The notes: generated by a model from the sequence alone, not told the origin. DNA of 64,000 nucleotides from Paludibacter sp. (GCA_034928015.1 JAYFPF010000036.1:15669-79668), one strand, 5' to 3'. Counted from the first letter of the stretch, positions 3 through 57,868 are shown. Translations and numbers: made by a program.

Positions 3-368
3 AATCCGTATTTATATGATGCCAACTCGGGGGGAGACTTACATGGAAAATTGAACGGTATCAAAGTTGATTACTGGACAATTGAAAACCCCTCGACTAC
101 AAATCCACGACCCAGAGACGCAACAATCAGTTATTTTTCATCTTTGTCATATCAGGATGCTTCTTATATACGCCTCCGGAATATTTCACTGGGCTACAGT
201 TTCCCTGAGAAGATGATTGAACCCTTAGGAATTAATAAGGTAAAAGTCTATGTTACGGCTACAAATTTATGGACAATGACAGATTATCTCTCTTACAGTC
301 CGGAGGTAAGTGCCGGAAGCTATCCGGAACCAAAAACCATTGTTGCCGGTCTGAATGTTACATTTTAA
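3..368 (+). CDS. susC: SusC-like TonB-dependent transporter, C-terminal part (5' end outside window)
   Basis: Frame is open from position 3. DASYIRLRNISLGYSFP and a C-terminal GLNVTF are typical SusC ends; it directly precedes a SusD. Confidence 0.93.
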   Translation, partial: NPYLYDANSGGDLHGKLNGIKVDYWTIENPSTTNPRPRDATISYFSSLSYQDASYIRLRNISLGYSFPEKMIEPLGINKVKVYVTATNLWTMTDYLSYSPEVSAGSYPEPKTIVAGLNVTF

Positions 369-2063: not shown

Positions 2064-3470
2064 ATGAAAGTTTTAATATATATTTTGCTGATTTGTTATG
2101 GGGGTGTTGTCGCACCTGCATTTTCCAGAACCTATACTCCTATCCGGGTAGAAGCAAAAAAATGGGTGAAGGGAGATAATAACCAACCCTGGCAATTTTT
2201 TGACACCAGGATTATTAATAATCTGCAAGGGTTTAAAAATACGGGAAATGATGAAGTCAATAAATACGGCAGTACAATTAATAAGAAAATAGCCGGTACT
2301 GGTTTCTATCGTGTCGAAAAAACAGGTGGCCGCTGGTGGGTAATAGATCCTGAGGGATATTGCAATATTCAAACCGTGATAAATGGTTTCAGGCAAGGTA
2401 CATCTCAAAAAAATCAGAAAGCATTCAGACAATTGTATAAATCTGAAGAAGACTGGGCAAACAAATCTGCTAAAGCGTTCGAGGAATATGGACTTAATGG
2501 CATAGGTTCATGGAGTAATTATCCTGTCGTACAGTCTTATAACAACAAAAGTCAGAAACACAAGCTTTCATATTCGGTTAATCTGAGTATGATGGCATCT
2601 TACGGAAAGAAAAGGGGAGGTACATACCAGTTACCCGGTAATATCGGTTTCCCGAATCAAACCATCTTTGTTTTTGACTCTGAATTTCCGGCATTTTGTG
2701 ATTCTTTGGCTAAAGTACAGATTAGCGGCTGGAAAAATGATCCGGATGTTTTCGGATATTTTTCTGATAACGAATTGCCATTCGGGATTAAAAATCTGGA
2801 AGGATACCTGACGCTTAAAAATCCGAAGGATCCGGGAAGGATGGCTGCGGAAAAATGGTTGAAAGAAAAACGTCTGACAGTTGATAAGATCACCGACAAG
2901 GAAAGAAGTGAGTTTGCCGGTCTGGTTGCTGAAAGATACTTCCGCATTGTATCGGAAGCTATTCGCAAGGCAGACCCGAACCACATGTATCTCGGAAGCC
3001 GTTTACATGGCTCGGCTAAATTCGTTTCTGAAATAATGCATGCTGCCGGAAAATACTGCGATGTGGTGTCGGTAAATTATTATGGAGTATGGACTCCGGT
3101 TAAGGAACATCTCGACAATTGGGCTGCATGGTCGGGAAAGCCGTTTATTATCACCGAGTTTTATACAAAAGCGATGGATTCAGGTTTGGCAAATACAACA
3201 GGAGCCGGCTATACGGTACATACACAGCGAGACAGAGGATATGCATATCAGGATTTTTGTCTGGCTTTGCTGGAGTCTAAAAACTGTGTAGGCTGGCATT
3301 ATTTCAAATATCAGGATAATGACCCGACAGCCAAAGGGGTAGATCCGTCGAATATTGACTCGAACAAAGGAATCATAGACAATGATTACAGATTTTATGA
3401 AGATTTAATGAACTCAATGCAGCAACTTAACCGACAGGTTTATTCGCTCATAGACTATTTTGACAGGTAA
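2064..3470 (+). CDS. GH50-like (agarase-annotated) clan GH-A glycoside hydrolase with SPI signal, no T9SS CTD
   Basis: GRWWVIDPEG, GYFSDNELPF (putative acid/base Glu), FIITEFY (putative nucleophile Glu), CVGWHYFKYQD. ATG 2064 gives a clean signal peptide; the ORF track starts at GTG 2046. Confidence 0.72.
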   Translation: MKVLIYILLICYGGVVAPAFSRTYTPIRVEAKKWVKGDNNQPWQFFDTRIINNLQGFKNTGNDEVNKYGSTINKKIAGTGFYRVEKTGGRWWVIDPEGYCNIQTVINGFRQGTSQKNQKAFRQLYKSEEDWANKSAKAFEEYGLNGIGSWSNYPVVQSYNNKSQKHKLSYSVNLSMMASYGKKRGGTYQLPGNIGFPNQTIFVFDSEFPAFCDSLAKVQISGWKNDPDVFGYFSDNELPFGIKNLEGYLTLKNPKDPGRMAAEKWLKEKRLTVDKITDKERSEFAGLVAERYFRIVSEAIRKADPNHMYLGSRLHGSAKFVSEIMHAAGKYCDVVSVNYYGVWTPVKEHLDNWAAWSGKPFIITEFYTKAMDSGLANTTGAGYTVHTQRDRGYAYQDFCLALLESKNCVGWHYFKYQDNDPTAKGVDPSNIDSNKGIIDNDYRFYEDLMNSMQQLNRQVYSLIDYFDR

Positions 3471-3502
3471 TTTTTATATTCAACTTTTAAATTAGATAAG
3501 TT

Positions 3503-4630
3503 ATGAAAAACAAGATTTTTACTTTAATTTTTATGATTGGATTAGCTGGTATTGCTAATCTGCAGGCACAGTTACTGCTGGAAGAAAATTTTGATTATGA
3601 TGCCAATCGTGTGTTGATTCTGGATGCAATTGCCAATTCTGATAATTTTGATGGTGTAACGGGATGGTCTACTCAGAGTAACAGCGCATCCGGGACTAAT
3701 TGTTTTAATATTGAGGATGGAGCTTTAACTTATAACGGTTATGCCGGTTCAGGAATTGGTAACTCACTAAAGTATAATGGTGATGCTGGACAAGGTGTTT
3801 TTAAACTTTTTTCAAAAAATGTACGGAACGATTCGGTTGTCTATGTTTCGTTTCTGATAAATTTTCCAAACACCGCAGTGTCAGGTGGCGATTATTTTGT
3901 CGGAATTAAAATGGAGCCTTCAGCGACCAGTACAAATTGGGGTGGCAGGTTGTTTGCCTCAGTCGATCCAACTTATCCGGGTGAAGAGGTGAGCCTCGGA
4001 ATCAACAAGATGAGCGGAGGAGCCACAACATGGGTCAATGCAGTGACTGGGCCGTTTCTTGCCGCAAACACAACTCACCTGCTTGTTGTAAAATATCATG
4101 TGGGCGTATTAAATGGTACCAGTGCAGCAGAGGAGGCCGGCAAGTTTGATGATGTTATGTCGCTTTATGTTAACCCAGCCCTGAACGGAAGTGAGCCTGT
4201 AACTCCCGATCTGATTCATCAGGATGCTAATCAGAATGATTTATATCGCTATACCCAGAGCGGACTGGTCTTTGGGGGAGCAAGAGGCTTGTACCTGCGT
4301 GCTTCAGCAGCAGGAAATGCTCCGGCATATACTATCGATGGCATTCGGGTCGGACTTACCTGGGAAGAAGTGTTACCGGCTCCAAACGGATTGAAGAATG
4401 CATCGGCAACAAACTTCTCGTATCGTATGGATGATAAACATATTGTTGTTACAGCATCAAATTTCAATTACGACAGGTTTGAACTGAATAGTTTGTCCGG
4501 TCAGTGCGTTTTATCCGGGTCGTTGGTTGAGAAAAATGGAAGAATCGATGCTTCTTCGCTACATCCGGGCGTATATATCCTGAGTTTACAGGGGAATCAG
4601 CGGGCGTCAGCCAAGATTATTATCCGTTGA
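3503..4630 (+). CDS. T9SS-sorted protein with one uncharacterised beta-rich domain
   Basis: Signal NLQA|Q; type-A CTD-like end GVYILSL...KIIIR; the domain resembles the N-terminus of 11312-14005. Confidence 0.8.
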   Translation: MKNKIFTLIFMIGLAGIANLQAQLLLEENFDYDANRVLILDAIANSDNFDGVTGWSTQSNSASGTNCFNIEDGALTYNGYAGSGIGNSLKYNGDAGQGVFKLFSKNVRNDSVVYVSFLINFPNTAVSGGDYFVGIKMEPSATSTNWGGRLFASVDPTYPGEEVSLGINKMSGGATTWVNAVTGPFLAANTTHLLVVKYHVGVLNGTSAAEEAGKFDDVMSLYVNPALNGSEPVTPDLIHQDANQNDLYRYTQSGLVFGGARGLYLRASAAGNAPAYTIDGIRVGLTWEEVLPAPNGLKNASATNFSYRMDDKHIVVTASNFNYDRFELNSLSGQCVLSGSLVEKNGRIDASSLHPGVYILSLQGNQRASAKIIIR

Positions 4631-4671
4631 TATTGATAGATTCAAATGTATTGATACAGAAAAAAAACGGT

Positions 4672-6783
4672 ATGAATAAGTTTCTTACATTCGTTTTATT
4701 TCTTTTTCTGATTGTTCAGGGAATCGGGGCAGAAGAAGTTGAACACCGGCTGATCCCGGTTGATGATACTTATACGTACAGTGATAATACCATCCGCGGG
4801 ATGGAGGATTTGCTGAAAACGTATCACTCAACTGCAGGAGCGCAATTTCGTCGGATTACTTTTCTTAAATTTGATATATCATCCTTGTCGCCATTTGCTC
4901 AGTCGGTTAAACTCCGGCTTTATACAAACGGGTTTCAGGCAGGTGGCGATAATGCACATCAGTTCGATTTGTATCCGGTAAAAATCAATACATGGTCGGA
5001 GGATGATATTACTTTTCTGAATTTTACAGAAAAGGCAGGAACCGATATGACTTCACCGGTTCTTGCTTCTTATATCGTACCTGCCGGTCAGGCTCTACCT
5101 GCCCAATATATTGAATTTTCCGGAGCAAATCTGACCAGATACATAACAGATTCACTGGCTGCAGGTAAACAATATGTTTCCATTCGCCTGCGGGAAAAGA
5201 ATGTTGTAAAGAATGGCGCTGCCGGTGTTATTGTCGAATTTCATTCGAAGGAGAACGAAAGCGGCTTTACACCAGAACTGATTGTTGTTGAAAAAGATGT
5301 AGAACTGCTGAGAGCTTCTGATATACGGGTAGATGGAGTACGGATTGAAGGATTTTCGGAATCTGTTTACCGCTATGTGTGCCGGCTGCCATATAATACA
5401 ACGGTTATTCCGGATGTGTCGGCTACAGCCAAGTATGGGGATACTTCAGTCTCTGTGACACAGGCAGCCGGTCTGACCGGAACAGAAGCCAGCCGAACAG
5501 CAAAAATCAGGATAAGCAAAGGTGAGGACATGCTTACTTATTCGATCGTGTTTGAACTTCTGCCGCCACCCAATGATGCCCGTTTGTCTGACATGTTGAT
5601 TAATGGGAAATCACTTGAGTTTTTTGATAAGGAGAAAACCGCTTATGTTGTTTATTTGCCTTATAGTGCCGAAGAAGTTCCGGAGATTACTGTCGTACCG
5701 AATGAGCCCGGAGCCGTAACCCGGATTGAAAATGCACTTTCTGTGGATAGTTCATCTCCGGAGTCTGAGCGCACGACAAACCTGTATGTAACTTCAGGAG
5801 ACAAAACGGAAACGCGTATTTACCGTGTTGAGTTCCGGCGTTTGCCCAAACTGGATATTATATTGGGAATAGGTCAGTCGAATATGGCCGGCCGGGCTGA
5901 TTTCTCAGCTTATACCGGAGCAATGCAGGATGTGTTTTTGCTAACTCCTGCCGGAGAATTTGAGAATGCATCGAATCCAATGAATAAGTACTCGAATATC
6001 CGGAAAGATATCAGTCTGCAAAAATTGGGACCATCTTATTCCTGCGCCCTGAAATTACAGGAATACATGCACAAACCTGTGGCTTTTGTTGTGAACGCGC
6101 AGGGGGGATCTTCGATTACAACCTGGTACCAACCCGGTAAATCAAATTATGATGCATCTGTTGTCCGGGCAAAAGAAGCACAACGTTTCGGCAGGATTCG
6201 TGGGGTAATCTGGCACCAGGGCGAAAGTGACAGTGGAAATGCAGGGACTTATATGGAGAAGTTAAAAACGATGGTCGAAAATTTGCGTAAAGATCTGAAT
6301 GAACCTGATTTATATTTTGTTGCCGGTGAGCTTGCTTACTGGCGTGGAGGAGGAACAGGTTCGACAGCCTTCAATACGATGATTCGTACCATAGCAGCTA
6401 ATATACCTAATAGCGACTGGATTTCGGCTGAAGGCTGTACACCGTTGATAGACAATTCAGATCCTCATTTTGATGCGCCAAGCGCCATTCTGTTGGGAGA
6501 ACGGTATGCTGAAAAATTAATCGGAGCAGTTTTTAATACAACAGCAACAGATCAGCCTGAGCAAATTAAGCTTCCGCTGTTGAAGCATCATGCCGGAGGT
6601 CTAACTGTTGTCACTCATCAAGACCCTGTTTGGTTAAAAATAACTGACTTAACCGGCAGGAGCGTTTATCAACACCTGCTACAGGCTCATCAATCCGTCG
6701 ATCTTAAAGTTAACAAAGGAATATATCTGCTCTCGTTCAGACAAAACGAGCAGCATTATACAAGAAAAATTATGATTCAATAA
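4672..6783 (+). CDS. T9SS cargo: DNRLRE/CBM96-like module + 2 cadherin-like beta-sandwiches + SGNH (SASA/CE6-like) acetylesterase + CTD
   Basis: PVDDTY...RRITFLKFDIS...EFHSKE...PELIV; esterase blocks GQSNMAG, WHQGESD, DPHF; CTD GIYLLS...KIMIQ. ATG 4672 chosen over TTG 4627. Confidence 0.82.
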   Translation: MNKFLTFVLFLFLIVQGIGAEEVEHRLIPVDDTYTYSDNTIRGMEDLLKTYHSTAGAQFRRITFLKFDISSLSPFAQSVKLRLYTNGFQAGGDNAHQFDLYPVKINTWSEDDITFLNFTEKAGTDMTSPVLASYIVPAGQALPAQYIEFSGANLTRYITDSLAAGKQYVSIRLREKNVVKNGAAGVIVEFHSKENESGFTPELIVVEKDVELLRASDIRVDGVRIEGFSESVYRYVCRLPYNTTVIPDVSATAKYGDTSVSVTQAAGLTGTEASRTAKIRISKGEDMLTYSIVFELLPPPNDARLSDMLINGKSLEFFDKEKTAYVVYLPYSAEEVPEITVVPNEPGAVTRIENALSVDSSSPESERTTNLYVTSGDKTETRIYRVEFRRLPKLDIILGIGQSNMAGRADFSAYTGAMQDVFLLTPAGEFENASNPMNKYSNIRKDISLQKLGPSYSCALKLQEYMHKPVAFVVNAQGGSSITTWYQPGKSNYDASVVRAKEAQRFGRIRGVIWHQGESDSGNAGTYMEKLKTMVENLRKDLNEPDLYFVAGELAYWRGGGTGSTAFNTMIRTIAANIPNSDWISAEGCTPLIDNSDPHFDAPSAILLGERYAEKLIGAVFNTTATDQPEQIKLPLLKHHAGGLTVVTHQDPVWLKITDLTGRSVYQHLLQAHQSVDLKVNKGIYLLSFRQNEQHYTRKIMIQ

Positions 6784-6811
6784 AATTATTCACATTAAAA
6801 AAGGAAATATT

Positions 6812-7675
6812 ATGAAAACAAATTACACAAAAAATGAAGAGAAAAGATATCTTACTTCATTGTCATTAATGATTACTTTTGCATTGTTCTTTATTGTAGG
6901 AATATCCACACAAAATATAAATGCTCAATCGGGTGCGGTTATTTATCCTACTGATGACGCTTATCAAAGATACACTAACGGAACTACTGTTTACGGACAA
7001 CAAGAAAGTTTACTTATTCAATTTCATACTGATGGTCAATGGAGAAGAGAAGCTTGGTTGAAATTTGAGATTGCCGGACTTGATGCTGAGCACTTTGACT
7101 CGGCAACTGTAATCTTGTCCCCTTTAAGTACGAATGCGAATATAATTTCTCCAATGCACACAATAAGAGAGACAACCACAAATTGGAGTGAGTTAACACT
7201 TGTTTCTGCAAAAAAGCCAACTCTTATCGATGTAGTATTAGATAGTAAAGAATATACACCAGGTACTCCGATTAAATTGGATGTAACAAACATACTTAAA
7301 ACACGTCTTGCAGAAGAGAAGGACACTATAAGTTTTAATATCAGACCTTCAAGTGTTGCAGGAGCATTGTATTTTCATTCAAAAGAATCAAGTCAATCGG
7401 AATTATGGCCGGTTTTACTTTTAAAAGGTACTACCGTAGGTCTAATCCATCAAGGTGATGAGGGAATTAGGTTTAAAGTAGCAAACAATAAACTAATAGT
7501 TTCAGGTCGAGAAAGTATTAAAACAACTATTTTTGATGTTACAGGTAAAGTTATATTGTCAAAACAAGAAGCACAGAATTCGTATTCAATTAATATTTCT
7601 GATTTGATTTCTGGTATCTACATAGTATCATTACAATATGAAACAGGTAATAAAATTGTAAAAATTATGCTATGA
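6812..7675 (+). CDS. T9SS cargo consisting only of a DNRLRE/CBM96-like module and CTD
   Basis: Signal NINA|Q; PTDDAY...RREAWLKFEI...WSELTL...LDVTN...FHSKE...PVLLL; CTD GIYIVSL...KIML; no catalytic domain seen. Confidence 0.78.
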   Translation: MKTNYTKNEEKRYLTSLSLMITFALFFIVGISTQNINAQSGAVIYPTDDAYQRYTNGTTVYGQQESLLIQFHTDGQWRREAWLKFEIAGLDAEHFDSATVILSPLSTNANIISPMHTIRETTTNWSELTLVSAKKPTLIDVVLDSKEYTPGTPIKLDVTNILKTRLAEEKDTISFNIRPSSVAGALYFHSKESSQSELWPVLLLKGTTVGLIHQGDEGIRFKVANNKLIVSGRESIKTTIFDVTGKVILSKQEAQNSYSINISDLISGIYIVSLQYETGNKIVKIML

Positions 7676-7676
7676 T

Positions 7677-7725
7677 TAAAAAACAGAAATATTTTTAACT
7701 TGTGTTGAAAGTATTTCTGTTTTTA
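7677..7725 (+). terminator. long AU-rich hairpin, terminator or RNA-stabilising stem
   Basis: AAAAACAGAAATATTTTTAAC-ttgt-GTTGAAAGTATTTCTGTTTTT, immediately after the 7675 stop. Confidence 0.6.
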
Positions 7726-7730
7726 ATTAA

Positions 7731-8759
7731 CGTGAGTTCGATATAAGAAAAATTGAAAAAGGTTAGCATAATTCCGAGATAATTATTATCTTTATAGTAT
7801 TGAAATACAAATAAATAACTAAATTCATCACTATGCTAACCACTGACGAAATTACTGAAATTTTTTATTTATGCGATGATTTTTCAAAAGAATTTGACAA
7901 ATCATACAAAAAACATATTTTGGTTGCCGAGAGCGGCAAAAAGACCAGAAACAAGCCAAACAGGCTGTCAAACAGTGAAATAATGACGATTTTGATCACT
8001 TTCCATCTGGGAGGATTCAGAAATCTGAAACATTACTATGTGTTTTATGTAAAGCAACATCTCAATGGGGAGTTTCCACGTTTGGTTTCCTATAATCGAT
8101 TTGTTGAGTTACAACAGCAAGCTGTTTTTCCTCTGGTTATTTTTCTTAAATTGTGTAGGATGGGTCAATGTACCGGAATCAGTTTTGTTGACTCAACCAC
8201 CATTAAAGCGTGTCATATCAAGAGAGAGAAAATGAATAAGGTTTTCTCTGGAATTGCCACAAAGGGCAAGGGAACTCTTGGTTGGTTTTTTGGTTTTAAA
8301 CTACACCTGATTATTAATGACAAAGGAGAAATTCTTAGCTTTGTTATTACTCAGGGAAATGTTGATGACCGGGAACCACTTCAATATGAATCGTTTATTG
8401 AAAAAGTGTCTGGAAAATTATATGCCGATAGGCGTTATATTTCACAGGCACTACGAGATATATTGTTTGTTGATGGAATTCATTTTGTTACCAAAATGAG
8501 AAATAATATGAAAGGTGGCGAAATACCTTTGCAGGACAGAATTTATCTGCGTAAAAGAGCCATCATTGAGACAGTCAATGATGAACTCAAAAATATTTGC
8601 CAGATAGAACACACAAGGCATCGGTCTTTTACCAATTTCATTTCAAATCTTGTGGCTGCACTGCTCGCTTACAGTTTTATGCCTAAGAAACCATCAATTA
8701 AGGTTGAATTTGTGGATCAAGATCAACTCGTTTTATTTTAATTTTATATCGAACTCACG
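7731..8759 (+). mobile_element. IS982-family insertion sequence
   Basis: Perfect terminal IRs CGTGAGTTCGATATAA (7731-7746) and TTATATCGAACTCACG (8744-8759), flanked by TTAATTAA at 7723-7730 and 8760-8767. The boundary is ambiguous by 1 bp (6-bp TAATTA alternative). Confidence 0.92.
7833..8741 (+). CDS. IS982-family DDE transposase
   Basis: SFVDSTTIKAC, WFFGFKLHLIINDKGE, NVDDR, LYADRRYIS, KRAIIETVNDELKN, EHTRHRS. Confidence 0.92.
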   Translation: MLTTDEITEIFYLCDDFSKEFDKSYKKHILVAESGKKTRNKPNRLSNSEIMTILITFHLGGFRNLKHYYVFYVKQHLNGEFPRLVSYNRFVELQQQAVFPLVIFLKLCRMGQCTGISFVDSTTIKACHIKREKMNKVFSGIATKGKGTLGWFFGFKLHLIINDKGEILSFVITQGNVDDREPLQYESFIEKVSGKLYADRRYISQALRDILFVDGIHFVTKMRNNMKGGEIPLQDRIYLRKRAIIETVNDELKNICQIEHTRHRSFTNFISNLVAALLAYSFMPKKPSIKVEFVDQDQLVLF

Positions 8760-8807
8760 TTAATTAACAAATAAAAATAACAAATAAAAACTATCGATTA
8801 ATACATC

Positions 8808-11243
8808 ATGAAAAAAACAAATAAAGTTACATTTTTCTCTTTAATTTGTCTATTGTTTGTTGCCTCCCTGTCAGCCCAAAAAACACCCAAGCCGGTCGTC
8901 TTCTATCTCCAGAACCTCCCTCAGGAGCGAATAGGAACAGAAACCGACGCGGTTATCATTGATAGTCTGCAAAAACAGAACTTTTGGGTGATCCCTGTAG
9001 ATTGCAGTAGTTTTCCAAAAACCTCACCAGAACTGGAAGACTATCTGGTCACATTCCATAAAGCCAGTCCGGCATTGTTGGCAACCTATGCTACTGCAAC
9101 AGAGGAGGCTGATTTGGATAATATCTATTATGTTCCGGAGGGTCATATACTACAACATAAAATTCCAATCTGGAACATTCTCGATCATGGAGTCGACGGA
9201 CTGATAAACCGCATCATGGATACATGGAATAAAGAAATTGTGGAAACATTCGGAGTGCAACCTGTTACCAGTCCCGAACAAATGTATGATAAACATGGAA
9301 ACCCGATTGATTACAACATGTATATGGATTTGGTTTATCCGAGTGGATCGCCGCTGAAAGATGTGCCGTTAGTCATTAATTTTTCCTCGAATTCACCCCG
9401 GCAAAAACCATTTAACCCTACAGGAACCAATGAAGTAGTATACCGCAATATATACCCGTTTGGTTTTCTGACAACCGGTTATGCATGGGCCAATGTGGAT
9501 CATTGTTATAATCCGTTGGCCAGAGCAGATGTTTGGACATATTTCGACAGGTATACACTTGAAGATTGGGCGGGTCACGCATTGGTTACTGCTTATGTGC
9601 GTTATATCAATACCCATCTGAATGACTATAATCTGAACGGAAAAATAGGAACTATGGGTATTTCGAAAGCATCGTACAGTTCTGTCCGTATTGCCAATAC
9701 TAAGAATGCTGATGGCAGAGAACATTTCTTGTACGGAGGGGTAGAAAATACAAAACCACAGCCCTGGCCGGGTGTGCCAAGCACGGTTGATGTAGCTTAT
9801 GCTGCTGCCGGTAATGGTACACGTCGTGTAAATACCTATGTAGATAAGTTTACGGTGCCTATGATTACTTCTGCGGGATCAAAAGATCAGTATAATCAAT
9901 GGGATGTATATCCTGAAGTTGTGAAAAGATTTAATGAACTTGATAATAAACACCTGGCATTCTGGATGGAAGACCTTGGACATACTTATCCTGGCCTTGG
10001 AACAGATCTGGCAACCGGTGAAAATCGTTATAAATTATTCAAAACATACTTTGATAATTATCTCAAAGCATCTGTAACGGATCCGCTGAAAGTGTTTTAT
10101 ATTTATCCGAAAGAGAACGCAACTGAAGTTGATACGGATGGTTTAACGCGTATCCTTATTCATGACGGTGTTTTACCTGCTGCCATGCTTGGCTTGACTC
10201 CGTATGCTCCGATTACGGTAAGATTCCTGTCAGAAATTGATTCAGTAGCTTTTGTCCAGCATGTGAAAATATATCATAAAGCATCGAATGTTGAGGTCGC
10301 AGGTACGTGGAAACCCAAAACGGGTAATACAACTTATGAATTTACGCCGGCATCGGATATGATAAAAAATGAGGTATACAGAATTGTTGTTTCCGCAGAA
10401 CTGCAAAATATATCCGGACAAAAAATGGAGAATGAGGTTGTACGTGATTTTACAATAACCAAAGAAGGACAGGAAGATGTTGAAACCGAAAGTTTAGTGA
10501 TTGCTCCCACGGATGATACTTACCAGAAGACATCTCTGGGGACGACTGCCTATGGCGCTCAGAATACCATGCGTGTACGCTACAGTCCCTATGGCGATTG
10601 GCGTTTCGATGGTTATATCAAATTTAATATTGCCGGGCTTGATGCAAGTAAAATTAAGTCGGCAAAGTTGAAACTGTCTTCCTCAACAACGCTTACGGGA
10701 GAGCCGGTTTCTCTGACTGTCTTTAAAACAACCACCGAATGGACGGAGTCGACCTTATTGTCGGCAAACAAACCAACGATTGTGGGGAGTGGATTGGATG
10801 TGGTAAATTTTACAGGTACTGAATTATGGACCAGTTTTGATGTGACTAATCAGTTGAAATCCGATATTGTTGATTCACAGACTGAGATTAGTTTTCTGAT
10901 ACGCGCGGCAACAGGAGGAAGTACTGAAAATGTTTACTTTAACACCAAGGAAGCTGAAAATGAAGTACTCAGGCCGGTGCTGGTTGTGGAGGAAATTGTA
11001 CCTGCAACAGCTGTTCCGCAGCAAGTCCCGGATGAGTTATATGTCACAGTCATGAATGAGAAGTTATATGTAACCAACGCCGGAGAGGCTGTTGTGACTA
11101 TTTTCTCATTATCAGGTAAAGCATTACTTTCTGAAACACTGTCAGGCAAATTATATGTCGATCTTTCAAATATTCCGGATGGAGTGTATATTGTGTCGGT
11201 AGCTAATGCCGGGCAGCGAAAGATGTTGAAAATTGTCCGCTGA
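8808..11243 (+). CDS. T9SS cargo: putative alpha/beta-hydrolase (esterase) + Ig-like (Big_5-type) + DNRLRE/CBM96-like + CTD
   Basis: Signal SLSA|Q; nucleophile-elbow-like GTMGISKAS, then AGSKDQY and DLGHTYP; Ig-like YPKENATEV...FTPASDM...YRIVV; PTDDTY...YIKFNI...FNTKE...PVLVV; CTD GVYIVSV...KIVR. Confidence 0.68.
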   Translation: MKKTNKVTFFSLICLLFVASLSAQKTPKPVVFYLQNLPQERIGTETDAVIIDSLQKQNFWVIPVDCSSFPKTSPELEDYLVTFHKASPALLATYATATEEADLDNIYYVPEGHILQHKIPIWNILDHGVDGLINRIMDTWNKEIVETFGVQPVTSPEQMYDKHGNPIDYNMYMDLVYPSGSPLKDVPLVINFSSNSPRQKPFNPTGTNEVVYRNIYPFGFLTTGYAWANVDHCYNPLARADVWTYFDRYTLEDWAGHALVTAYVRYINTHLNDYNLNGKIGTMGISKASYSSVRIANTKNADGREHFLYGGVENTKPQPWPGVPSTVDVAYAAAGNGTRRVNTYVDKFTVPMITSAGSKDQYNQWDVYPEVVKRFNELDNKHLAFWMEDLGHTYPGLGTDLATGENRYKLFKTYFDNYLKASVTDPLKVFYIYPKENATEVDTDGLTRILIHDGVLPAAMLGLTPYAPITVRFLSEIDSVAFVQHVKIYHKASNVEVAGTWKPKTGNTTYEFTPASDMIKNEVYRIVVSAELQNISGQKMENEVVRDFTITKEGQEDVETESLVIAPTDDTYQKTSLGTTAYGAQNTMRVRYSPYGDWRFDGYIKFNIAGLDASKIKSAKLKLSSSTTLTGEPVSLTVFKTTTEWTESTLLSANKPTIVGSGLDVVNFTGTELWTSFDVTNQLKSDIVDSQTEISFLIRAATGGSTENVYFNTKEAENEVLRPVLVVEEIVPATAVPQQVPDELYVTVMNEKLYVTNAGEAVVTIFSLSGKALLSETLSGKLYVDLSNIPDGVYIVSVANAGQRKMLKIVR

Positions 11244-11311
11244 AACACAGGAGAGGATTCAGGTCTATTGTAGTGAATTCCGGTTCTGCCGGGTAATTTT
11301 TAAATTGTTGT

Positions 11312-14005
11312 ATGAAGGCATTTTTTTATTTCAAAATAAAATTATTATTGGTTGTTTGCTTGATCGGGATATCCAATAATTTTTATGCTCAATCCACAGC
11401 TTTGTTGTTGGATGATAATTTCGACTATGCTGAAGACTCCGATTTAGTGGGACAGAATGGTTGGGTTTTGGGAACAGCCGGCACAAACAAAGTTACCATA
11501 TCAACAATGGGCTTAAGTTATCCGGGATATCCGGACTCGGATACAGGTCTGGCTGCCGCTTTTAATCCGTTGAGCGACCGTGTTCAGAAGAGTTTTACAG
11601 GAACCCTCAATAACAGCTATTTTTACGCTTTTCTGATTCGTGTAAATTCAGTTGGTACAGGTGATTTTTTCGCTGGCTTTTTTAGCGGAAATGCTTTCAG
11701 AGGAAGGGTTTATTTAAAAGCTGACGGAAATGGATTTCAGTTTGGGTTGGTTAAAACTACAACCGGAACGGTTACTTACACTACGGGTGCTCCTTTTTCG
11801 TTCGGAACAACCTATTTAGTGGTAGTGAAATATGATTTTATCGCAGGCAGTGGAAATGATGAGGTAAGTTTATTTATCAATCCTGATTTAAATGCAAATA
11901 ATCCGGGAAGTCCGGTCATTGGTCCTTTAACAGATACCGGAAATGATGTCTCTGCGAATGTTTTTGCAATTCAGGGAAGGACTAATGCAGGAAGTTTCAG
12001 CTTGGACGGTTTGCGGATTGCTACAACTTGGAATGCAATCAAAGGAACCGATTTCGAAAATCATTACCTGGAATTACCCCGGTTTATTAGTTCGGATATG
12101 GTAATTCAGCGTGACACTCCATTAAAACTGAGAGGTTGGGCTGTTGCCGGAGACACGGTGTTGGTTGAGTTTATAAGACAAAATAGGGTAGTTAAAGATT
12201 CGGTTGAGGTTAATGCAGATGGCCGGTGGGAAGTTCAACTTCCCGCTCAGGCCGTTTCTGTTGAGCCGTGTCGCCTGAAATTCAGCCTTAAAGGTTATCC
12301 GGAAACGTTTCAGCAACTTGAAAATATCCTGATTGGCGATGTGTGGTTAGCAGGAGGTCAGTCGAATATGGAGAAGAAAGTCAACCATCTGCTGGAAGCT
12401 GAAGATTATATCAGGGAAGCTGATGATTTTCCGAATATACGTGCTTTCAGAGCCAGCTATAATGCATTGGCAGAACCTTCGGAAAAGGTGAATGCGGGTT
12501 CTGCACCCTGGATTGTTTGTAATAGCCTGAAAGTAGCCGACAATGTATCGGCGGTAGCATACGTATTTGCCCGGGAGATTTATGAAAAAACAGGTATTCC
12601 TGTCGGCATTATGCAGGCATACCGGGGAGGAACCGAACTGGAAACATGGTTAAGTCCCTGGAAACTTGCCGAACCTGAGTATTGTAAAATTGCAGGAAGA
12701 AATGATTTTCTGGATGCGGGAAACAGTGCAAACGCACATTCAGTTAATTTTAACGGACAGGTTAATCCTCTGAAAGGTTTTCCCCTGAAAGGCTTTATCT
12801 GGTACCAGGGAGAAAGCAATACAAAGCGACCGAATGAATATCGCTATATGATGAAAATGCTCATAGAGGATTGGCGGACTTTATGGAATCAGGGAGATCT
12901 ACCGTTTTATTACGTTCAGATGTTTAATGTATCGGCGCCTGCTGTTTACGAAGAGGCGACATGGGCTGATTTGCGGGAACAACAAAACTTTTTGTTGTAT
13001 GATAAAACAGTGCCGAATACCGGTATGGCTGTAATTATCGACACGAACGAAGAAGCGCTTAATCCGGATGATGATATCCGCATGCATCCCAGGAATAAAA
13101 AAGTGGTTGGAATCAGGTTGGCAAATATTGCATTGAAGGATACCTACGGCTTTGAATTGCTGGCAGAAGGACCAGTGCTGAACAGGTACAGGATATCGAA
13201 TGACTCGGTTTACTTGTATTTTAAAAATACAGGTGAAGGATTGAAAATAAAAACCGGAGATGCTGAATTACAGGGATTTGTTGTAAGCGGTACAGATAAA
13301 AAATTTAAACCGACAGAAGCTACTATATTGAATGATAGTACAGTCGCATTAAGAAGTACACAGGTTTCTCAACCTGTTGCCGTAAGGTATGGGTGGGCAC
13401 GTAATCCGGTTTGCAATTTGTATAATGCTGTGGATATTCCTGCTACTCCTTTCAGAACTGACGGATGGAAACTGAGTTCATATACAGAGCCGCAATCCTC
13501 CTGCCCGGCGCAAACAGGCAATTCGAAACTGGTGGCTGTAATAATTAATGGTATGCCTTTGCAGGATTTTAATCCAGAACAGTTCACTTATAACATAGCC
13601 TCCGGCATAACTGCGGATAAAGCAGATGTTTTAGCAATAGCCGACAGTCCGTTTGCAGAGGTGTCGGTTTCCGGTCCGGAACAAGAGAATACAATTCTGA
13701 TTACTGTTACTTCCGAAGATGCCTCCCGGAGTGTGTATGAACTGACTTTCGACAGAAATACAGGTTTTTATGAAAATACAAAAGGAAAATGGACAATAAT
13801 GATGAGTGAAGAAGGGATGATTGTAAAAAATAACTCAGGAGAAGCATTATCTTTGAAAATGTTTAATCCGGCCGGACAATGTTTGTCGGTTGACCGTTTA
13901 GAAGGAAATGGAGAAAAAAAATATAATCTGCCGAAAGGTGTTGTTTTTCTTGATATAACTGATTCTTCAGGTAGGCCTCAAACGATAAAATATTTAATTA
14001 AATAA
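11312..14005 (+). CDS. T9SS cargo: uncharacterised N-terminal domain + sialate-O-acetylesterase-like SGNH esterase + cadherin-like + CTD
   Basis: SDMVIQRD, GDVWLAGGQSNME, FIWYQGESN, MHPRNKK, AVRYGW...NLYN...PATPFRTD; CTD-like end. Confidence 0.85.
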   Translation: MKAFFYFKIKLLLVVCLIGISNNFYAQSTALLLDDNFDYAEDSDLVGQNGWVLGTAGTNKVTISTMGLSYPGYPDSDTGLAAAFNPLSDRVQKSFTGTLNNSYFYAFLIRVNSVGTGDFFAGFFSGNAFRGRVYLKADGNGFQFGLVKTTTGTVTYTTGAPFSFGTTYLVVVKYDFIAGSGNDEVSLFINPDLNANNPGSPVIGPLTDTGNDVSANVFAIQGRTNAGSFSLDGLRIATTWNAIKGTDFENHYLELPRFISSDMVIQRDTPLKLRGWAVAGDTVLVEFIRQNRVVKDSVEVNADGRWEVQLPAQAVSVEPCRLKFSLKGYPETFQQLENILIGDVWLAGGQSNMEKKVNHLLEAEDYIREADDFPNIRAFRASYNALAEPSEKVNAGSAPWIVCNSLKVADNVSAVAYVFAREIYEKTGIPVGIMQAYRGGTELETWLSPWKLAEPEYCKIAGRNDFLDAGNSANAHSVNFNGQVNPLKGFPLKGFIWYQGESNTKRPNEYRYMMKMLIEDWRTLWNQGDLPFYYVQMFNVSAPAVYEEATWADLREQQNFLLYDKTVPNTGMAVIIDTNEEALNPDDDIRMHPRNKKVVGIRLANIALKDTYGFELLAEGPVLNRYRISNDSVYLYFKNTGEGLKIKTGDAELQGFVVSGTDKKFKPTEATILNDSTVALRSTQVSQPVAVRYGWARNPVCNLYNAVDIPATPFRTDGWKLSSYTEPQSSCPAQTGNSKLVAVIINGMPLQDFNPEQFTYNIASGITADKADVLAIADSPFAEVSVSGPEQENTILITVTSEDASRSVYELTFDRNTGFYENTKGKWTIMMSEEGMIVKNNSGEALSLKMFNPAGQCLSVDRLEGNGEKKYNLPKGVVFLDITDSSGRPQTIKYLIK

Positions 14006-14007
14006 AA

Positions 14008-16155
14008 ATGAATTGTACAAAAAAGAATTTAGTTGTAGTAGTATTTGGCTTTTTGTTCCCGGTTTTGTTGTCGGCACAAAATGATTATCAAACCATTCAG
14101 ACGAAGAGTTCCTATTCCGGTAGCTGGACTACCCGTCAGGCTAAATTAGTCGGCCTGGTTCCCGGTTTCGAAAGCAAGGCGGATGGAGCGGATGATTTTA
14201 CCCGGTATGGTACTTACAAATATCTGAGAACAGACTCGACGGGATTTTTCTATGTAAAGAAAATTGACGGCAGATGGTGGATGGTTGATCCTGAAGGTTA
14301 TGCCGGTATCAACATGGCTGTGACGAGTTTTAGCTCAGCGAATATACAAAACGATTATGATATTACCAGACGTTTGGGATATAATGGCTCCGGAAATTTC
14401 TTAGCCAGCGAGAGTCAGACTAAGTCAGGTTACAACCTTCAGAATTATGCGAACTTTTCTTTTACACGGCGACTTAATTTTTTCCTCAGTTATAAAAATG
14501 TAAGAAAGAATTACTATACGACACCAACGTCTGTACAGGGCAGCCTGGATCATATTCTTGTACTTGATCCGCAGTTTGAGATATACTGCGATAATCTGGC
14601 CAATACCAATGTAACTCCCTTTGCAGAAGAAAGAGATTTGCTTGGATGGTTTACCGACAATGAAATTAACTTCAACCAGGACCAGTTGCGCAATCTGGTT
14701 AAAGATTTACCGGCTGGAGATCCAAGCAGGAATGCAACCTTAGCATGGGCAGCTCAAAAGGGCCTCAGCGAATCGGATTGTATCAATTATACATCGAAAG
14801 TGACCGAAGCGTTGAAACAGGAGTTTGCCGCTTATCTCGCAGAACATTATTTTAAAGTTGTTGCGGCCGCTATCCGGAAATATGACCCAAACCATCTGAT
14901 TCTCGGAAGTCGCTTTCATGGTCGTCCGAGGGCTATTCCGGCAGTAGTGGCAGCATCTCATAGATATATGGACGTTACTTCCGTTAACTTTTACGACCGG
15001 TGGTCGCCAAATGAACAGATCGCGGCAACTTCCTGGACTGAGGATAAACCCTGTTTAGTGGGAGAATTCTATATTAAAGATATAAATACACAGCCGGGTA
15101 CGCAGTCGGGCGCCGGTTGGTATGTCAACTCTCAGGTACACAGAGGGTATTTTTATCAGAATACTTGTATTGAGTTGCTGAAAAATAAGAATTATATAGG
15201 TTGGCACTATTTCCGTTTCAAGGATGATGATGACGGTTCGAATAAAGGCATTGTGAGCAACGCGCTGGTTGAATATACAGATATGACCGGCTACATGGAA
15301 GAACTGAACAAACAGGTGTACAGGCTTATTGATCATTTTGACGGGATAAATCGCAGACCTGATGTGGAGACCAGAGCTTATACTGTTGAAGCGGTGGCCG
15401 ATACTTATGTAATTCCCGGTACTACGAATACGGCTAACTTTGCATCTTCAACAGAATTGGAAATCCGCCATCACGCAACAGAAGCAAATCGCCGTGAAGC
15501 GTTTCTGAAATTTGATTTATCATTATTGAGATCAAAACTCCCGAAGTTGAAAAATGCCCTTTTGGAGGTTAGCTGTATCCAGACAGATGAGTCGGCAAGG
15601 GCGCTATTCGCATCCGGAATCAGTGATGTGTCATGGGAAGAGTCGACATTGACGGGGGCAGTGCGTCAGACCAATAACGACTGGCGCCTCGGTTACAACA
15701 GGTTGTCGTTTCTGAAAGGAATAGTTCCTCAGGAGAAACTTGTATTCGACGTAACAGGATGGATTTATGATCAGCCATATCAGGAAAATGTATCATTTAA
15801 AATTCATGATCTGAATGCTACGGGTTCAGCCCTGAAAATTGCTTCCCGGGAGCATGCTGACGTTAATTTACATCCGAAACTGATACTGACATTTTGGGAT
15901 GATTCAACCGATATTCCGACTTTTAATGAAAAAAATAATGCATTCAGTTTTTTTCCTAATCCGGTGCGTGATGAACTTTATATCAGAGGAGATGATTTTG
16001 CAAAAGCTGAATTGTTAACAATAAAGGGAGAAAAACTGTTGAGTACACATGAAAGCAGGATCAATGTCTCGGGATTTCAGAACGGGATTTATTTGTTGAG
16101 TGTATTATGCAATAACGGAAAAACGTCTTTCTATAAACTGAGTATTGTTAATTAA
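14008..16155 (+). CDS. T9SS cargo: GH50-like hydrolase + DNRLRE/CBM96-like + CTD
   Basis: GRWWMVDPEG, GWFTDNEINF, CLVGEFY, GWHYFRFKDD; VADTYV...RREAFLKFDLS...IASRE...PKLIL; CTD FPNPVRDELYI...GIYLL. Confidence 0.8.
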   Translation: MNCTKKNLVVVVFGFLFPVLLSAQNDYQTIQTKSSYSGSWTTRQAKLVGLVPGFESKADGADDFTRYGTYKYLRTDSTGFFYVKKIDGRWWMVDPEGYAGINMAVTSFSSANIQNDYDITRRLGYNGSGNFLASESQTKSGYNLQNYANFSFTRRLNFFLSYKNVRKNYYTTPTSVQGSLDHILVLDPQFEIYCDNLANTNVTPFAEERDLLGWFTDNEINFNQDQLRNLVKDLPAGDPSRNATLAWAAQKGLSESDCINYTSKVTEALKQEFAAYLAEHYFKVVAAAIRKYDPNHLILGSRFHGRPRAIPAVVAASHRYMDVTSVNFYDRWSPNEQIAATSWTEDKPCLVGEFYIKDINTQPGTQSGAGWYVNSQVHRGYFYQNTCIELLKNKNYIGWHYFRFKDDDDGSNKGIVSNALVEYTDMTGYMEELNKQVYRLIDHFDGINRRPDVETRAYTVEAVADTYVIPGTTNTANFASSTELEIRHHATEANRREAFLKFDLSLLRSKLPKLKNALLEVSCIQTDESARALFASGISDVSWEESTLTGAVRQTNNDWRLGYNRLSFLKGIVPQEKLVFDVTGWIYDQPYQENVSFKIHDLNATGSALKIASREHADVNLHPKLILTFWDDSTDIPTFNEKNNAFSFFPNPVRDELYIRGDDFAKAELLTIKGEKLLSTHESRINVSGFQNGIYLLSVLCNNGKTSFYKLSIVN

Positions 16156-48903: not shown

Positions 48904-48930
48904 AGTATTATTTACGTTTCAAGAATGACA

Positions 48931-50019: not shown

Positions 50020-50051
50020 AATCTACTAATTTAACTAATCACACATCTGCT

Positions 50052-51308: not shown

Positions 51309-51314
51309 TTGATT

Positions 51315-52559: not shown

Positions 52560-52701
52560 TTAATATGTAAAATATCTTCACTATGTGTCACTTTCAAATC
52601 TGCTTTTATCTAAATAAACAAAATCCAAATTGTTTTTTTGTGACCATTCAAGTAATTTCAGGGCAAATCATTGATTCTCTTGAACATGGTCATTGACTCT
52701 C

Positions 52702-53901: not shown

Positions 53902-53921
53902 GAACTTTTAAATAGAAGTCA

Positions 53922-55190: not shown

Positions 55191-55240
55191 TTTATATTAT
55201 GTCTAAAGTCTAAAGTCGTTTGGTATAATTTTTATAATGT

Positions 55241-55257
55241 GTCGTCCCTACGAGACT
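55241..55257. repeat. short REP-like palindrome
   Basis: GTCGTCCCTACGAGACT (AGTCTCGTAGGGACGAC on the minus strand). Confidence 0.45.
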
Positions 55258-55282
55258 ATTTACATGATTAATCATTTCAGTT

Positions 55283-56030: not shown

Positions 56031-56040
56031 TTTCGGTTCT

Positions 56041-57015: not shown

Positions 57016-57191
57016 TTTATAATTGTCTAACGACGAATGTCTAACGTCCTTTTTTTGTTATTTTATTACGCCCTTGGGGGGCTGACTGGTGACCGGCGAC
57101 TGGTGACATTTTCCACGGCAAAGCCCCGCCAGTCCCGTCTCGAACCAACTAATCCACTCATATACAACAACTCTCCTTTAATTCAGGAGAG

Positions 57192-57847: not shown

Positions 57848-57868
57848 CCTCGCACCCGCACTTAGTTA

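Follow-up and report, generated by a model that had tools for sequence, protein, structure and literature searches.

A conserved pair of GH50-like paralogs in a PUL with glucuronate-related genes of a Paludibacter-like bacterium

A single PUL of a Paludibacter-like bacterium encodes two GH50-like paralogs, A and B, which group with BpGH50 of Bacteroides plebeius in a branch routinely misnamed 'agarase'. Judged from their sequences, both are GH50-type clan GH-A enzymes that keep the catalytic glutamates. We think it probable that they are retaining β-glycanases and the backbone cutters of this PUL, with B acting outside the cell and A trimming the imported fragments of an acetylated, GlcA-containing glycan. 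The BpGH50 subfamily itself is already known, having been described in 2017, and what is new is the context of the A/B pair and of the locus. The pair may have a new specificity, as the preliminary description had suggested.

Gene content of the locus

The PUL extends across the start of the window (the whole stretch of 64,000 nucleotides that was analyzed), and the upstream DNA was annotated as well (L167, contig C84:1-15668; 15.7 kb before the window). An HTCS gene and adjacent SusC and SusD genes are followed by 11 co-located genes up to the end of the GH2 gene at 22722 (Table 1). Four of the encoded proteins are CBM96/T9SS proteins. The IS982 transposase gene is missing from syntenic relatives and is not part of the PUL system.

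Table 1. Features of the PUL (window coordinates unless preceded by C84)
Feature	Coordinates	Strand	Remarks
HTCS sensor	C84:8675-12688	-	divergent from SusC; upstream of the window
SusC-like TonB-dependent transporter	from C84:13028; end at window 3-368	+	
SusD-like lipoprotein	403-2013	+	
GH50-like paralog A	2064..3470	+	BpGH50 clade, A-type; signal peptide only
T9SS cargo, concanavalin-A-like jelly roll + CTD	3503..4630	+	conserved; lectin or lyase role both possible
CBM96 + cadherin-like + SASA-type O-acetylesterase + T9SS CTD	4627..6783	+	predicted extracellular deacetylase
Stand-alone CBM96 + T9SS CTD protein	6812..7675	+	
IS982-family transposase	7833..8741	+	insertion within the PUL
~420 aa unassigned N-terminal domain + Ig-like + CBM96 + T9SS CTD	8808..11243	+	
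Jelly roll (akin to that of 3503-4630) + SASA-type esterase, without CTD	11312..14005	+	
GH50-like paralog B	14008..16155	+	B-type subclade; signal peptide + catalytic domain + CBM96 + T9SS sorting domain
CE15 glucuronoyl esterase	16167..17372	+	PF22244 E 1e-32; syntenic in L082-L084
GH88 (~52-395) + 'GH154' β-D-glucuronate dehydratase (~404-783) fusion	17375..19729	-	
GH2 β-glucuronidase, BuGUS-2 type + C-terminal malectin-type module	20047..22722	+	

The GH2 enzyme matches the β-glucuronidase (GUS) of B. uniformis (PDB 5UJ6; PMC6351562) and PDB 6D50 at E 1e-213, and it has the invariant NxKG carboxylate-binding motif (N583, K585), a GUS signature (PMC6712278). The GH88-dehydratase fusion matches PDB 9O4U/9NWF (E 1e-110) and 3WIW (E 1e-107); its two parts are separate genes in the related loci L081, L082 and L085 and are fused in L083, L084 and L100. 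Together, such a dehydratase and GH88 take off saturated non-reducing-end β-GlcA in two steps, without a lyase (PMC12269599).

Several of the remaining genes have conserved positions. A gene like that of the jelly-roll cargo protein lies directly after the A-type gene in 16 related loci; the model of this protein (pLDDT 82) most resembles lectin domains and the PL36 alginate lyase, with TM values of 0.53 at best. The type of gene that precedes the second jelly-roll gene is kept a short way upstream of the B-type gene in Paludibacter-like loci, and a sequence search of the PDB with its product gave no match. The jelly-roll/esterase gene has its stop codon 2 bp ahead of the start of B.

With all PUL genes annotated, no further GH, PL or backbone enzyme was found between the HTCS and GH2 genes, and no agarolytic partner (GH16, GH86, GH117) is present among the annotated PUL genes, including the 15.7 kb upstream. 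For GH117, of which the libraries hold no dedicated profile, the absence from the PUL rests on other assignments for all genes. The contig of the window encodes no sulfatase, the five sulfatases of the genome being located on contigs C44 and C48. The preliminary description had noted a lack of red-algal galactan machinery next to uronic-acid enzymes, and the full annotation, with the CE15, GH88-dehydratase and GUS-type GH2 genes, agrees on both points.

Sequence features and phylogenetic placement of the paralogs

Protein A has 468 residues if translated from the ATG at 2064 (MKVLIY...), which agrees with the N-termini of its orthologues, and 474 residues from the GTG at 2046, where the residue numbering used here starts. 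B consists of 715 residues, with a catalytic domain at ~36-448. The two proteins share 33% identity over 435 residues (BLASTP, E 1e-82) and are true paralogs. The motifs that had drawn attention to them are present in both open reading frames: DNELPF (E243) and ITEFY (E371) in A, where E243 is the predicted acid/base and E371 the predicted nucleophile, and DNEINF (E219) and VGEFY (E353) in B, where the putative catalytic equivalents E219 and E353 are assigned by alignment only. In alignment with Aga50D, the DNE glutamate of A falls on the position at which entries 4BQ2 and 4BQ4 differ by an E-to-Q exchange, and its EF glutamate matches the IIGEF segment. In the AF2 model of A (pLDDT 90.9), D241-N242-E243 closes strand 235-243 and E371 closes strand 367-372. 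Both proteins also contain two clade-specific lysines, K375 and K441 in A and K357 and K413 in B.

The domain organization differs between the paralogs as the preliminary description stated. The CBM96 of B (residues 458-628) is recognized by PF24517 (E 5e-18, 65.9 bits; cut-off 26), and the region also matches the NF033679 DNRLRE domain and PDB 7VBO (E 0.0066). The founding member of CBM96, the sole one characterized, binds a polyuronate, alginate (PMC9971899), and the fold is also mentioned for a PHB hydrolase (PMC12278694). The type A CTD of B (residues 649-712) scores 29.7 bits with PF18962 (cut-off 27) and 21.2 bits with TIGR04183, slightly below the cut-off of 23. The N-terminus of B is an SPI signal peptide (...VLLSA/QND), and SPI-type signals are also found in the A-type orthologues of paired loci. 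Because the CTD and CBM96 are on B, A has an SPI-type signal, and GldM/PorM is encoded in the same genome (contig C73), B is predicted to be secreted or located on the cell surface and A to be periplasmic, which lends support to the outside/inside pair proposed earlier.

Both proteins fall within GH50, with 5T3B (BpGH50) as the closer match. A matches 5T3B at E 9e-88 over residues 49-474, and agarases at E 2e-30 to 2e-23 in partial alignments; for B, the values are E 3e-47 and E 6e-23 to 6e-16, respectively. The model of A is a (β/α)8 fold with TM 0.85 to 5T3B (38% identity) and ~0.70 to Aga50D. After the GH50 entries, the closest fold matches are GH2 glucuronidases and galacturonidases, and a GH158 β-1,3-glucanase is also among the matches. 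The architecture of the GH50_1 agarases was not found in either protein: A aligns from its residue 73 onward with 4BQ2 from chain residue 246, and the extra modules of B are C-terminal.

In the phylogenetic tree, A, B and 5T3B are located in one clade of 115 sequences, nearly all from Bacteroidota (SH-aLRT 100, stem 0.8), within which the position of 5T3B is uncertain owing to its long branch (1.08). The B-type subclade comprises 23 sequences (SH-aLRT 100, stem length 0.82). The agarase clade was recognized through L156 (E 3e-231 to 4BQ2), and monophyly of A and B with the agarases is rejected by the AU test (delta lnL 876, p 2e-5). The phylogeny thus separates the pair from characterized agarases and places it with 5T3B. 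The idea of a mis-annotated agarase subfamily is therefore right, and the subfamily is not new, since this branch was recognized in 2017.

A, B, 5T3B and the two further GH50-like paralogs of the genome all have the invariant residues of the BpGH50 clade, EFYxK, NKG, GAG, W359 and P351, whereas the agarase clade has EFHxG and N[I/V]G in place of EFYxK and NKG. K441 is nearly invariant in the BpGH50 clade (N-K-G), where the two remaining GH50 clades have N-[I/V]-G. All four GH50-like paralogs of the genome keep K375 and K441; one of them lies beside GH10 and GH3 genes and another beside a GH3 gene. The branch is large and widespread, one search having yielded 2,462 homologues (E<=1e-5) from gut, freshwater, soil and sludge Bacteroidota, and a crystal structure has existed since 2016.

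Conservation of the pair and possible substrates

The A-type and B-type genes occur together in 14 loci, always with 31-37% identity between the two, and the pair is old and conserved. Paludibacter-like genomes keep the gene order SusCD-A-jelly roll-SASA-...-B-CE15-GH88/GDH-GH2. Across the BpGH50 clade, a GUS-type GH2 is found in 21 of 69 loci and a SASA esterase in 26 of 69, compared to none of the 41 loci of other GH50 clades in either case; GUS, SASA, GH88 and GDH are all missing from the 11 agarase-clade loci. Among 80 A-type genes, SASA is fused in 9 and adjacent in 11. Minimal PULs with the order HTCS-SusCD-SASA-GH2-GH50A exist in Bacteroides sp. and Leadbetterella, while GH88/GDH and CE15 are common in Paludibacter-type loci only. 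The A-type proteins of Leadbetterella and Parapedobacter share 56-59% identity with A and carry fused GH16_3 modules of laminarinase type, as judged from their nearest structures (3ILN, E 2e-78); they are encoded in minimal PULs together with GH2 and SASA. The relatives are non-marine, namely Paludibacter MAGs from biofilm, sludge and lake, and other Bacteroidales.

A possible pathway can be outlined, for which we infer the cellular locations, order of action and substrate. B would be exported by the T9SS and kept on the substrate by its CBM96, where it would fragment an O-acetylated polysaccharide containing β-D-glucuronate, with secreted SASA acetylesterases and the other CBM96 proteins acting beside it extracellularly. 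SusC/SusD would import the fragments. Further cutting by A would take place in the periplasm, where CE15 would remove uronate esters and the second SASA esterase acetyl groups. Either the BuGUS-2-like GH2 or the dehydratase-GH88 fusion would then take off terminal β-GlcA.

A uronic-acid glycan is suggested as the target because of the neighboring CE15, GH88-dehydratase and GUS-type GH2 genes; this reading of the substrate rests wholly on gene context, since no member of the BpGH50 clade has a reported activity. As the likeliest single guess, though with less than even odds, the bond cut by A and B would be β-glucuronosidic, with GlcA in subsite -1, and the pair would be endo/exo β-glucuronanases of an acetylated, glucuronan-like chain; failing that, a β-Glc or β-Gal bond adjoining GlcA would be cut. 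K441, the GUS-like fold matches and the founding member of CBM96 are hints of a uronate in subsite -1. In a profile-profile alignment whose nucleophiles are correctly matched, K441-G falls opposite the K-G of the GUS NxKG motif, but the alignment is weak (hhalign probability 12%, E 0.0024). With two exo-routes for β-GlcA already in the PUL, there is no evident need for a third glucuronidase, although there would be for an endo-acting one. Alternatively, the real endo-enzyme could be the conserved jelly-roll T9SS protein, as an unrecognized lyase.

The GH3- and GH10-side paralogs that have both lysines, and the GH16_3 fusions of A-type enzymes, speak against a glucuronate reading; neutral β-glucan or xylan chemistry is at least equally indicated by them. 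That GH88/GDH and CE15 are common in Paludibacter-type loci only is a further point against it. A and B could be β-1,3(4)-glucanases like those of GH50_2/GH50_3, acting on a glucan with acetyl and GlcA decorations or with alternating Glc/GlcA, the GUS and the GH88-dehydratase fusion merely clearing uronate residues. This is conceivable but unlikely. Two GH50 β-1,3-glucanases, PaBglu50A and Fsa16295Glu, have been characterized (PMC11079163), and the laminarinase-type fusions in minimal PULs with GH2 and SASA, the GH3 and GH10 neighbors and the GH158 fold match all fit a glucanase. However, the PUL lacks GH3, GH16, GH17 or any other β-glucosidase for finishing a glucan, all of its assignable accessory enzymes aim at glucuronate or esters, and the characterized glucanases are placed in other branches by the literature (PMC11079163), not by the present tree.

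An activity on glucuronogalactan (type II arabinogalactan, gum-like polymers), with A and B as β-galactanases or β-galactosidases and the GUS, GH88-dehydratase fusion and CE15 stripping β-GlcA/4-O-methyl-GlcA caps from side chains, appears distinctly improbable. The consistent association with O-acetylesterases would be surprising for arabinogalactan proteins, and arabinofuranosidase, rhamnosidase, GH43 and GH35 genes are absent from the PUL. Although the -1 sugar in GH50 agarases is β-D-galactose and a GH50 β-galactosidase, VadG925, exists (PMC11079163), VadG925-like Lentisphaerota sequences form part of a third clade without K375 and K441. That the pair are genuine β-agarases or porphyranases, as the NCBI label 'agarase' on many close homologues would have it, can be regarded as extremely improbable and was rejected, even though about 25 of 30 characterized GH50 members are agarases (PMC11079163) and BpGH50 is located in a porphyran PUL. 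A and B are outside the agarase clade by the AU test, they have EFYxK instead of the agarase-invariant EFHxG, and the N-terminal ~240 residues of the ~750-aa agarases are missing from both; the relatives live in non-marine habitats, the locus has no sulfatase, GH16, GH86 or GH117 partner, and BpGH50 was twice found inactive on agarose and neoagarotetraose (PMC8260779).

Extending the glucuronate reading to the whole BpGH50 clade (>2,000 Bacteroidota sequences, human gut species included) gives a rather doubtful but consequential proposal: its members would be β-glucuronan-active endo/exo hydrolases in which K441, as the counterpart in position of the GUS NxKG lysine, reads the carboxylate, on acetylated glucuronans or GlcA-rich glycans from bacteria, fungi or algae. 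If true, this would be a new GH50 activity, would explain the inactivity of BpGH50 on agar, and would define a lyase-independent polyglucuronate route, with an endo-cut by GH50 followed by GUS or dehydratase plus GH88. Pharmacologically interesting GUS enzymes of the gut (BuGUS-2 type) would also gain a native glycan pathway. Should the enzymes be merely another β-glucanase or galactanase, the result would be useful annotation hygiene and unsurprising. The co-travel with O-acetylesterases, often fused, and BuGUS-2-type GUS narrows the substrate search for the branch, and Paludibacter-like genomes add CE15 to its context, along with the glucuronate dehydratase/GH88 pair that was discovered recently.

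Comparison with known systems

B. caccae PUL25 (BcGDH and BcGH88) follows the same logic, in which saturated β-GlcA is taken off the chain end with no glucuronidase involved; here the two activities reside on one polypeptide. PUL25 targets chondroitin, with a PL35 lyase and GH109, whereas the present PUL has GH50 enzymes instead of a recognizable lyase or hexosaminidase. GH2 GUS and clan GH-A endo-β-glucuronidases such as GH79 heparanase share the clan and the retaining mechanism with A and B and belong to other families. In the weak alignment of the GUS motif with A, the Asn is shifted by one position (S-N-K-G versus N-x-K-G).

Within GH50, non-agarase activities include one β-galactosidase and β-1,3-glucanases (PMC11079163). 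PaBglu50A, Fsa16295Glu (GH50_2/GH50_3) and VadG925, which show that the family extends beyond agarose, represent separate lineages in the literature (Pseudomonas, Fervidibacteria/archaea and Victivallis) and were compared by description (PMC11079163). The GH50_1 agarases (Aga50D 4BQ2, AgWH50C 5Z6P, PfGH50B 6XJ9) have the same family, fold, and DNE and E-F motifs as A and B; they differ in their ~21% identity, greater length and other clade, and have other genomic partners.

BpGH50 (BACPLE_01683) is most similar to A, as a single (β/α)8 domain of ~470 aa in the same clade, with the same catalytic Glu pair and clade-specific Y/K/K (5T3B K393, K448). Its subfamily is reportedly enriched in human gut Bacteroidetes (Giles, Pluvinage & Boraston 2017). 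The 'agarase'-annotated non-agarase branch centered on it was defined by Giles et al. 2017, as cited in PMC11079163. The B. plebeius GH50 gene adjoins GH105/GH154, and both are co-deleted in some strains (PMC12316285). Unlike the marine-derived porphyran PUL of BpGH50, the PUL described here is a glucuronate/acetyl-directed one of a non-marine Paludibacter-like bacterium, with a conserved A/B pair; compared to BpGH50, B carries CBM96 and a T9SS sorting domain in addition and belongs to a long-branch subclade of its own.

GH50-like paralogs A and B and their placement in the family

The co-oriented GH50-like genes A and B encode paralogs that share 33% identity over 435 residues (E 1e-82). No Pfam or NCBIfam model matched their catalytic domains, and their family assignment therefore comes from sequence and fold matches to the PDB. 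For both, the best match among solved structures is BpGH50 of Bacteroides plebeius (PDB 5T3B; E 9e-88 for A and 3e-47 for B), whereas the GH50 beta-agarases Aga50D, AgWH50C and PfGH50B match much more weakly (E 1e-30 to 1e-16), with alignments lying mainly in the barrel's C-terminal half. In the alignments, the glutamate of the DNE motif pairs with the sole E/Q difference between the Aga50D entries 4BQ2 and 4BQ4, and that of the EF motif pairs with the glutamate of IIGEF in Aga50D. The structure of A modeled with AlphaFold (pLDDT 90.9) superimposes on 5T3B with a TM-score of 0.85, and on the agarases with scores of ~0.70; it puts each glutamate at a beta-strand C-terminus, the position demanded by clan GH-A. 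Ranked next after the GH50 entries are, nearly throughout, GH2 glucuronidases and galacturonidases, a list that may partly be an effect of PDB entry numbers. B additionally carries a CBM96 module at residues 458–628 (PF24517, E 5e-18) and a type-A T9SS sorting domain (CTD; PF18962, 29.7 bits). The preliminary description of a GH50-like pair with both catalytic motifs, in which B has a CBM96 and a CTD and A a signal peptide alone, is thus borne out. A sub-threshold Pfam hit to an ETF domain in B (residues 263–322; E 4e-5, 23.8 bits with the cut-off at 26.7) was judged to be noise.

Two scans of contigs, with one genome per species, yielded 160 loci, from which 190 GH50 catalytic domains were extracted. 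An IQ-TREE phylogeny was computed for 179 distinct sequences, among them A, B and 5T3B but not the characterized PaBglu50A, Fsa16295Glu and VadG925, and was rooted on the Pseudomonadota (14 sequences). A, B and 5T3B share one clade of 115 sequences, nearly all from Bacteroidota (SH-aLRT 100, stem 0.8), referred to here as the BpGH50 clade. The Pseudomonadota clade is that of the characterized agarases, with a Microbulbifer agarilyticus member matching Aga50D at E 3e-231, and a third clade (39 sequences) comprises marine flavobacteria, Verrucomicrobiota, Kiritimatiellota and Lentisphaerota. A tree uniting A and B with the agarases was rejected (AU test, delta lnL 876, p 2e-5); the phylogenetic check proposed earlier thus places neither protein inside the characterized agarase clade. 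BpGH50 itself is inactive on agarose and neoagarotetraose (PMC8260779). We consider it very unlikely that A and B are agarases, and the tree, the AU test and the inactivity of BpGH50 together support the earlier view of a mis-annotated, non-agarase subfamily. This view is already in the literature: the clade was described by Giles et al. 2017, according to the passage of PMC11079163 that cites them, and GH50 also includes one beta-galactosidase and two beta-1,3-glucanases (PMC11079163).

The BpGH50 clade contains an 81-sequence group with A and, separate from it, a long-stemmed group of 23 with B (SH-aLRT 100, stem 0.82). Paralogs were counted per locus with a strict catalytic-domain coverage filter, which keeps out SASA (O-acetylesterase-type) and GH16 partners linked by fusion proteins. 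Two GH50-like genes within 10 kb are present in 19 of 79 A-centered loci, and 14 of these 19 combine homologues of A (A-type) and of B (B-type). Partners within each A/B pair are 31–37% identical, whereas each is 44–83% identical to its counterpart in the window, indicating an old duplication whose products have stayed paired. Gene order is kept in Paludibacter-like genomes (SusC-SusD-A-jelly roll-CBM96/SASA-...-B-CE15-GH88/dehydratase-GH2), with the GH88/dehydratase unit either fused or split in two genes. The B catalytic domain was matched in only 7 of 24 same-genus genomes (E ≤ 1e-10), and the locus is therefore accessory. All B-type proteins have SPI signals, and most full-length ones share the length of B (about 710–726 aa). 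SPI signals are also found in the A-type orthologues of paired loci, while in lineages that lack B, many of the A-types are lipoproteins. GldM/PorM was found in the genome. Judged from sequence, these features fit a division of labor between a CBM-anchored B that would be exported and an A that would act in the periplasm.

Organization of the locus and its partner enzymes

Upstream, the 15.7 kb that precede the window contain a divergently transcribed HTCS gene and the start of SusC, and nothing else; downstream of position 22.9 kb lie housekeeping genes, followed by a capsule/EPS synthesis cluster. The PUL is therefore complete from HTCS to GH2-malectin.

Features of the PUL, flanking elements and further GH50-like paralogs of the genome (window positions unless a contig or locus is named)
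PUL order	Feature	Position	Strand	Remarks
1	HTCS, SusC, SusD
2	GH50-A	2046/2064-3470	co-oriented with B	DNELPF (E243), ITEFY (E371); signal peptide only
3	Jelly-roll T9SS protein	3503-4630
4	CBM96-SASA esterase-CTD
5	CBM96-CTD
6	IS982 insertion	7833-8741
7	Unassigned domain-Ig-CBM96-CTD	8808-11243		N-terminal domain, 8808-10070
8	Jelly roll-SASA esterase	11312-14005	+	jelly roll, 11312-12300
9	GH50-B	14008-16155	co-oriented with A	DNEINF (E219), VGEFY (E353); rejected ETF hit, 14794-14973
10	CE15
11	GH88-'GH154' fusion	17375-19729	- (opposite strand)
12	GH2-malectin
	IS4-type transposase	46594-47868
	Capsule/EPS cluster	47902-63736	-
	Third GH50-like paralog	C82:16576-18822 (L168:8576-10822)	-	748 aa, 39% identical to A, with CBM96
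	Fourth GH50-like paralog	C51, L169:9337-10860		507 aa

The GH2 enzyme matches beta-glucuronidase (GUS) structures of B. uniformis, 5UJ6 (PMC6351562) and 6D50, at E 1e-213. It contains the NxKG motif (N583, K585), invariant among 17 orthologues, through which GUS enzymes bind the glucuronate carboxylate (PMC6712278). The N-terminal half of the GH88-'GH154' fusion matches the GH88 structure 3WIW (E 1e-107), and the C-terminal half matches the 'beta-D-glucuronic acid dehydratase' entries 9O4U and 9NWF (E 1e-110). 'GH154' proteins were shown in 2025 to be dehydratases: from a saturated beta-GlcA at the non-reducing end they form a delta-4,5-uronate, which is then removed by GH88 or GH105 (PMC12269599). 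A dehydratase supplying delta-4,5-uronate for GH88 explains both the fusion and the missing lyase. The two are encoded by a single fused gene in the window and in the related loci L083, L084 and L100, and by two adjoining genes in L081, L082 and L085; the fusion looks like a recent joining of two enzymes acting in sequence.

With GUS, dehydratase/GH88 and CE15, the PUL thus holds three separate beta-glucuronate-directed devices, along with at least two predicted enzymes for O-acetyl removal. The genome has five sulfatases, all on other contigs and none on that of the PUL, in agreement with the earlier observation of uronic-acid enzymes without a sulfatase. Besides the enzymes listed, the PUL contains no further glycosidases or recognizable lyases, which leaves A and B as the sole backbone-cutting candidates, with the jelly-roll protein as the one alternative. 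The window has two copies of the concanavalin-A-like jelly roll, one accompanied solely by a T9SS tail and the other joined to a SASA esterase, and a jelly-roll gene comes after GH50A in 16 related loci. A model of the jelly-roll T9SS protein gave generic fold matches only, to lectin domains and a PL36 alginate lyase (TM ≤0.53), and the domain could be a binding module (lectin) or an unrecognized lyase.

Several other features of the window were observed. The IS982-family transposase lies between the CBM96-CTD gene and the Ig-CBM96-CTD gene and is missing from syntenic relatives. The locus has been rearranged, since the jelly roll-SASA gene lies upstream of GH50B on the plus strand here but downstream on the opposite strand in relatives. 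The Ig-CBM96-CTD protein starts with a domain of ~420 aa that matches neither Pfam nor any PDB sequence but is conserved immediately ahead of GH50B in Paludibacter-like loci. The capsule/EPS cluster encodes an MBOAT acyltransferase, GT4 glycosyltransferases, Wzy, a flippase, a UDP-glucose dehydrogenase family protein, a Wzz/tyrosine kinase and an initiating sugar transferase. Its GC content falls to 0.305 at ~48–52 kb, an IS4-type transposase lies at its edge, and it may have been horizontally acquired.

Genomic context and specific residues of the BpGH50 clade

When loci spanning 12 kb or more were compared, the BpGH50 clade had a GUS-type GH2 gene in 21 of its 69 loci and a SASA esterase in 26; neither occurs in any of the 41 loci from the other two clades of GH50. 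The A-type enzyme is fused to SASA in 9/80 cases and directly adjacent to it in 11/80; fusions with BD-FAE-type acetylesterases are also seen. A compact PUL (HTCS-SusC-SusD-SASA-GH2(malectin)-GH50A), in which GH2 ends 1–3 bp ahead of the GH50 start, recurs in Bacteroides sp. (loci L163/L164), Leadbetterella byssophila CP002305 (L165) and locus L162. In B. plebeius, the GH50 gene adjoins a GH105/GH154 gene (GH105|GH154), and the two are jointly lost in some strains (PMC12316285). The BpGH50 clade is tied by its gene company to O-acetylated, glucuronate-bearing substrates.

Columns with 90% or higher conservation in the BpGH50 clade were compared with the same columns of the other clades. The nucleophile region reads E-F-Y-x-K in the BpGH50 clade but E-F-H-x-G in agarases, and the segment after strand 8 reads N-K-G instead of the N-[I/V]-G of the other clades; a few further positions likewise differ. 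These residues, lysines included, are kept in all four GH50 paralogs of the genome. The placement of K375 and K441 was judged from secondary-structure position and hhalign. The profile-profile alignment of the BpGH50 clade with its GUS-type GH2 partners is weak overall (hhalign probability 12%, E 0.0024); it pairs the nucleophiles and strand-8 segments correctly and aligns K441-G442 with K585-G586, part of the NxKG motif of GUS. CBM96 modules are present on B and three neighboring proteins, and the founding CBM96 is an alginate-binding module with a groove lined by lysine and arginine (PMC9971899). Taken together, the lysine columns, the hhalign result, the fold matches and CBM96 make a −1 subsite that accepts uronate plausible, but no more.

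Possible substrates

The most likely reading, to which we give somewhat better than even weight, is that the PUL targets a glycan that is O-acetylated and contains beta-glucuronate, whose backbone B would hydrolyze outside and A inside. Within this reading, a beta-glucuronosidic linkage is our best single guess for the bond cut, though a tentative one. Counting against the acetyl/glucuronate link are GH50 enzymes fused to a laminarinase-type GH16 (3ILN, E 2e-78) in Leadbetterella, Parapedobacter and Lacihabitans, and the settings of other relatives. The third paralog belongs to a separate PUL with a GH10 xylanase-family gene, GH3, SusC/SusD and HTCS, the fourth lies beside GH3 and a beta-helix protein, and other A-type loci contain PL10-type pectate lyase, GH88 or sulfatase genes. 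Specificity is probably not uniform across the clade, and for A and B themselves, specificities of beta-1,3(4)-glucan type or beta-galactan type are the live alternatives to a beta-glucuronosidic one.

A glucuronoxylan target is raised by CE15, SASA and the paralog beside GH10, but the PUL lacks a xylanase, a xylosidase and an alpha-glucuronidase, and for this reason it was set aside. Chondroitin or another glycosaminoglycan was likewise set aside, since hexosaminidase, lyase and sulfatase are all missing. Both proteins add new members to the BpGH50 branch of GH50, which is known but functionally orphan, and they represent a good lead towards de-orphaning a large enzyme clade rather than a new kind of system.
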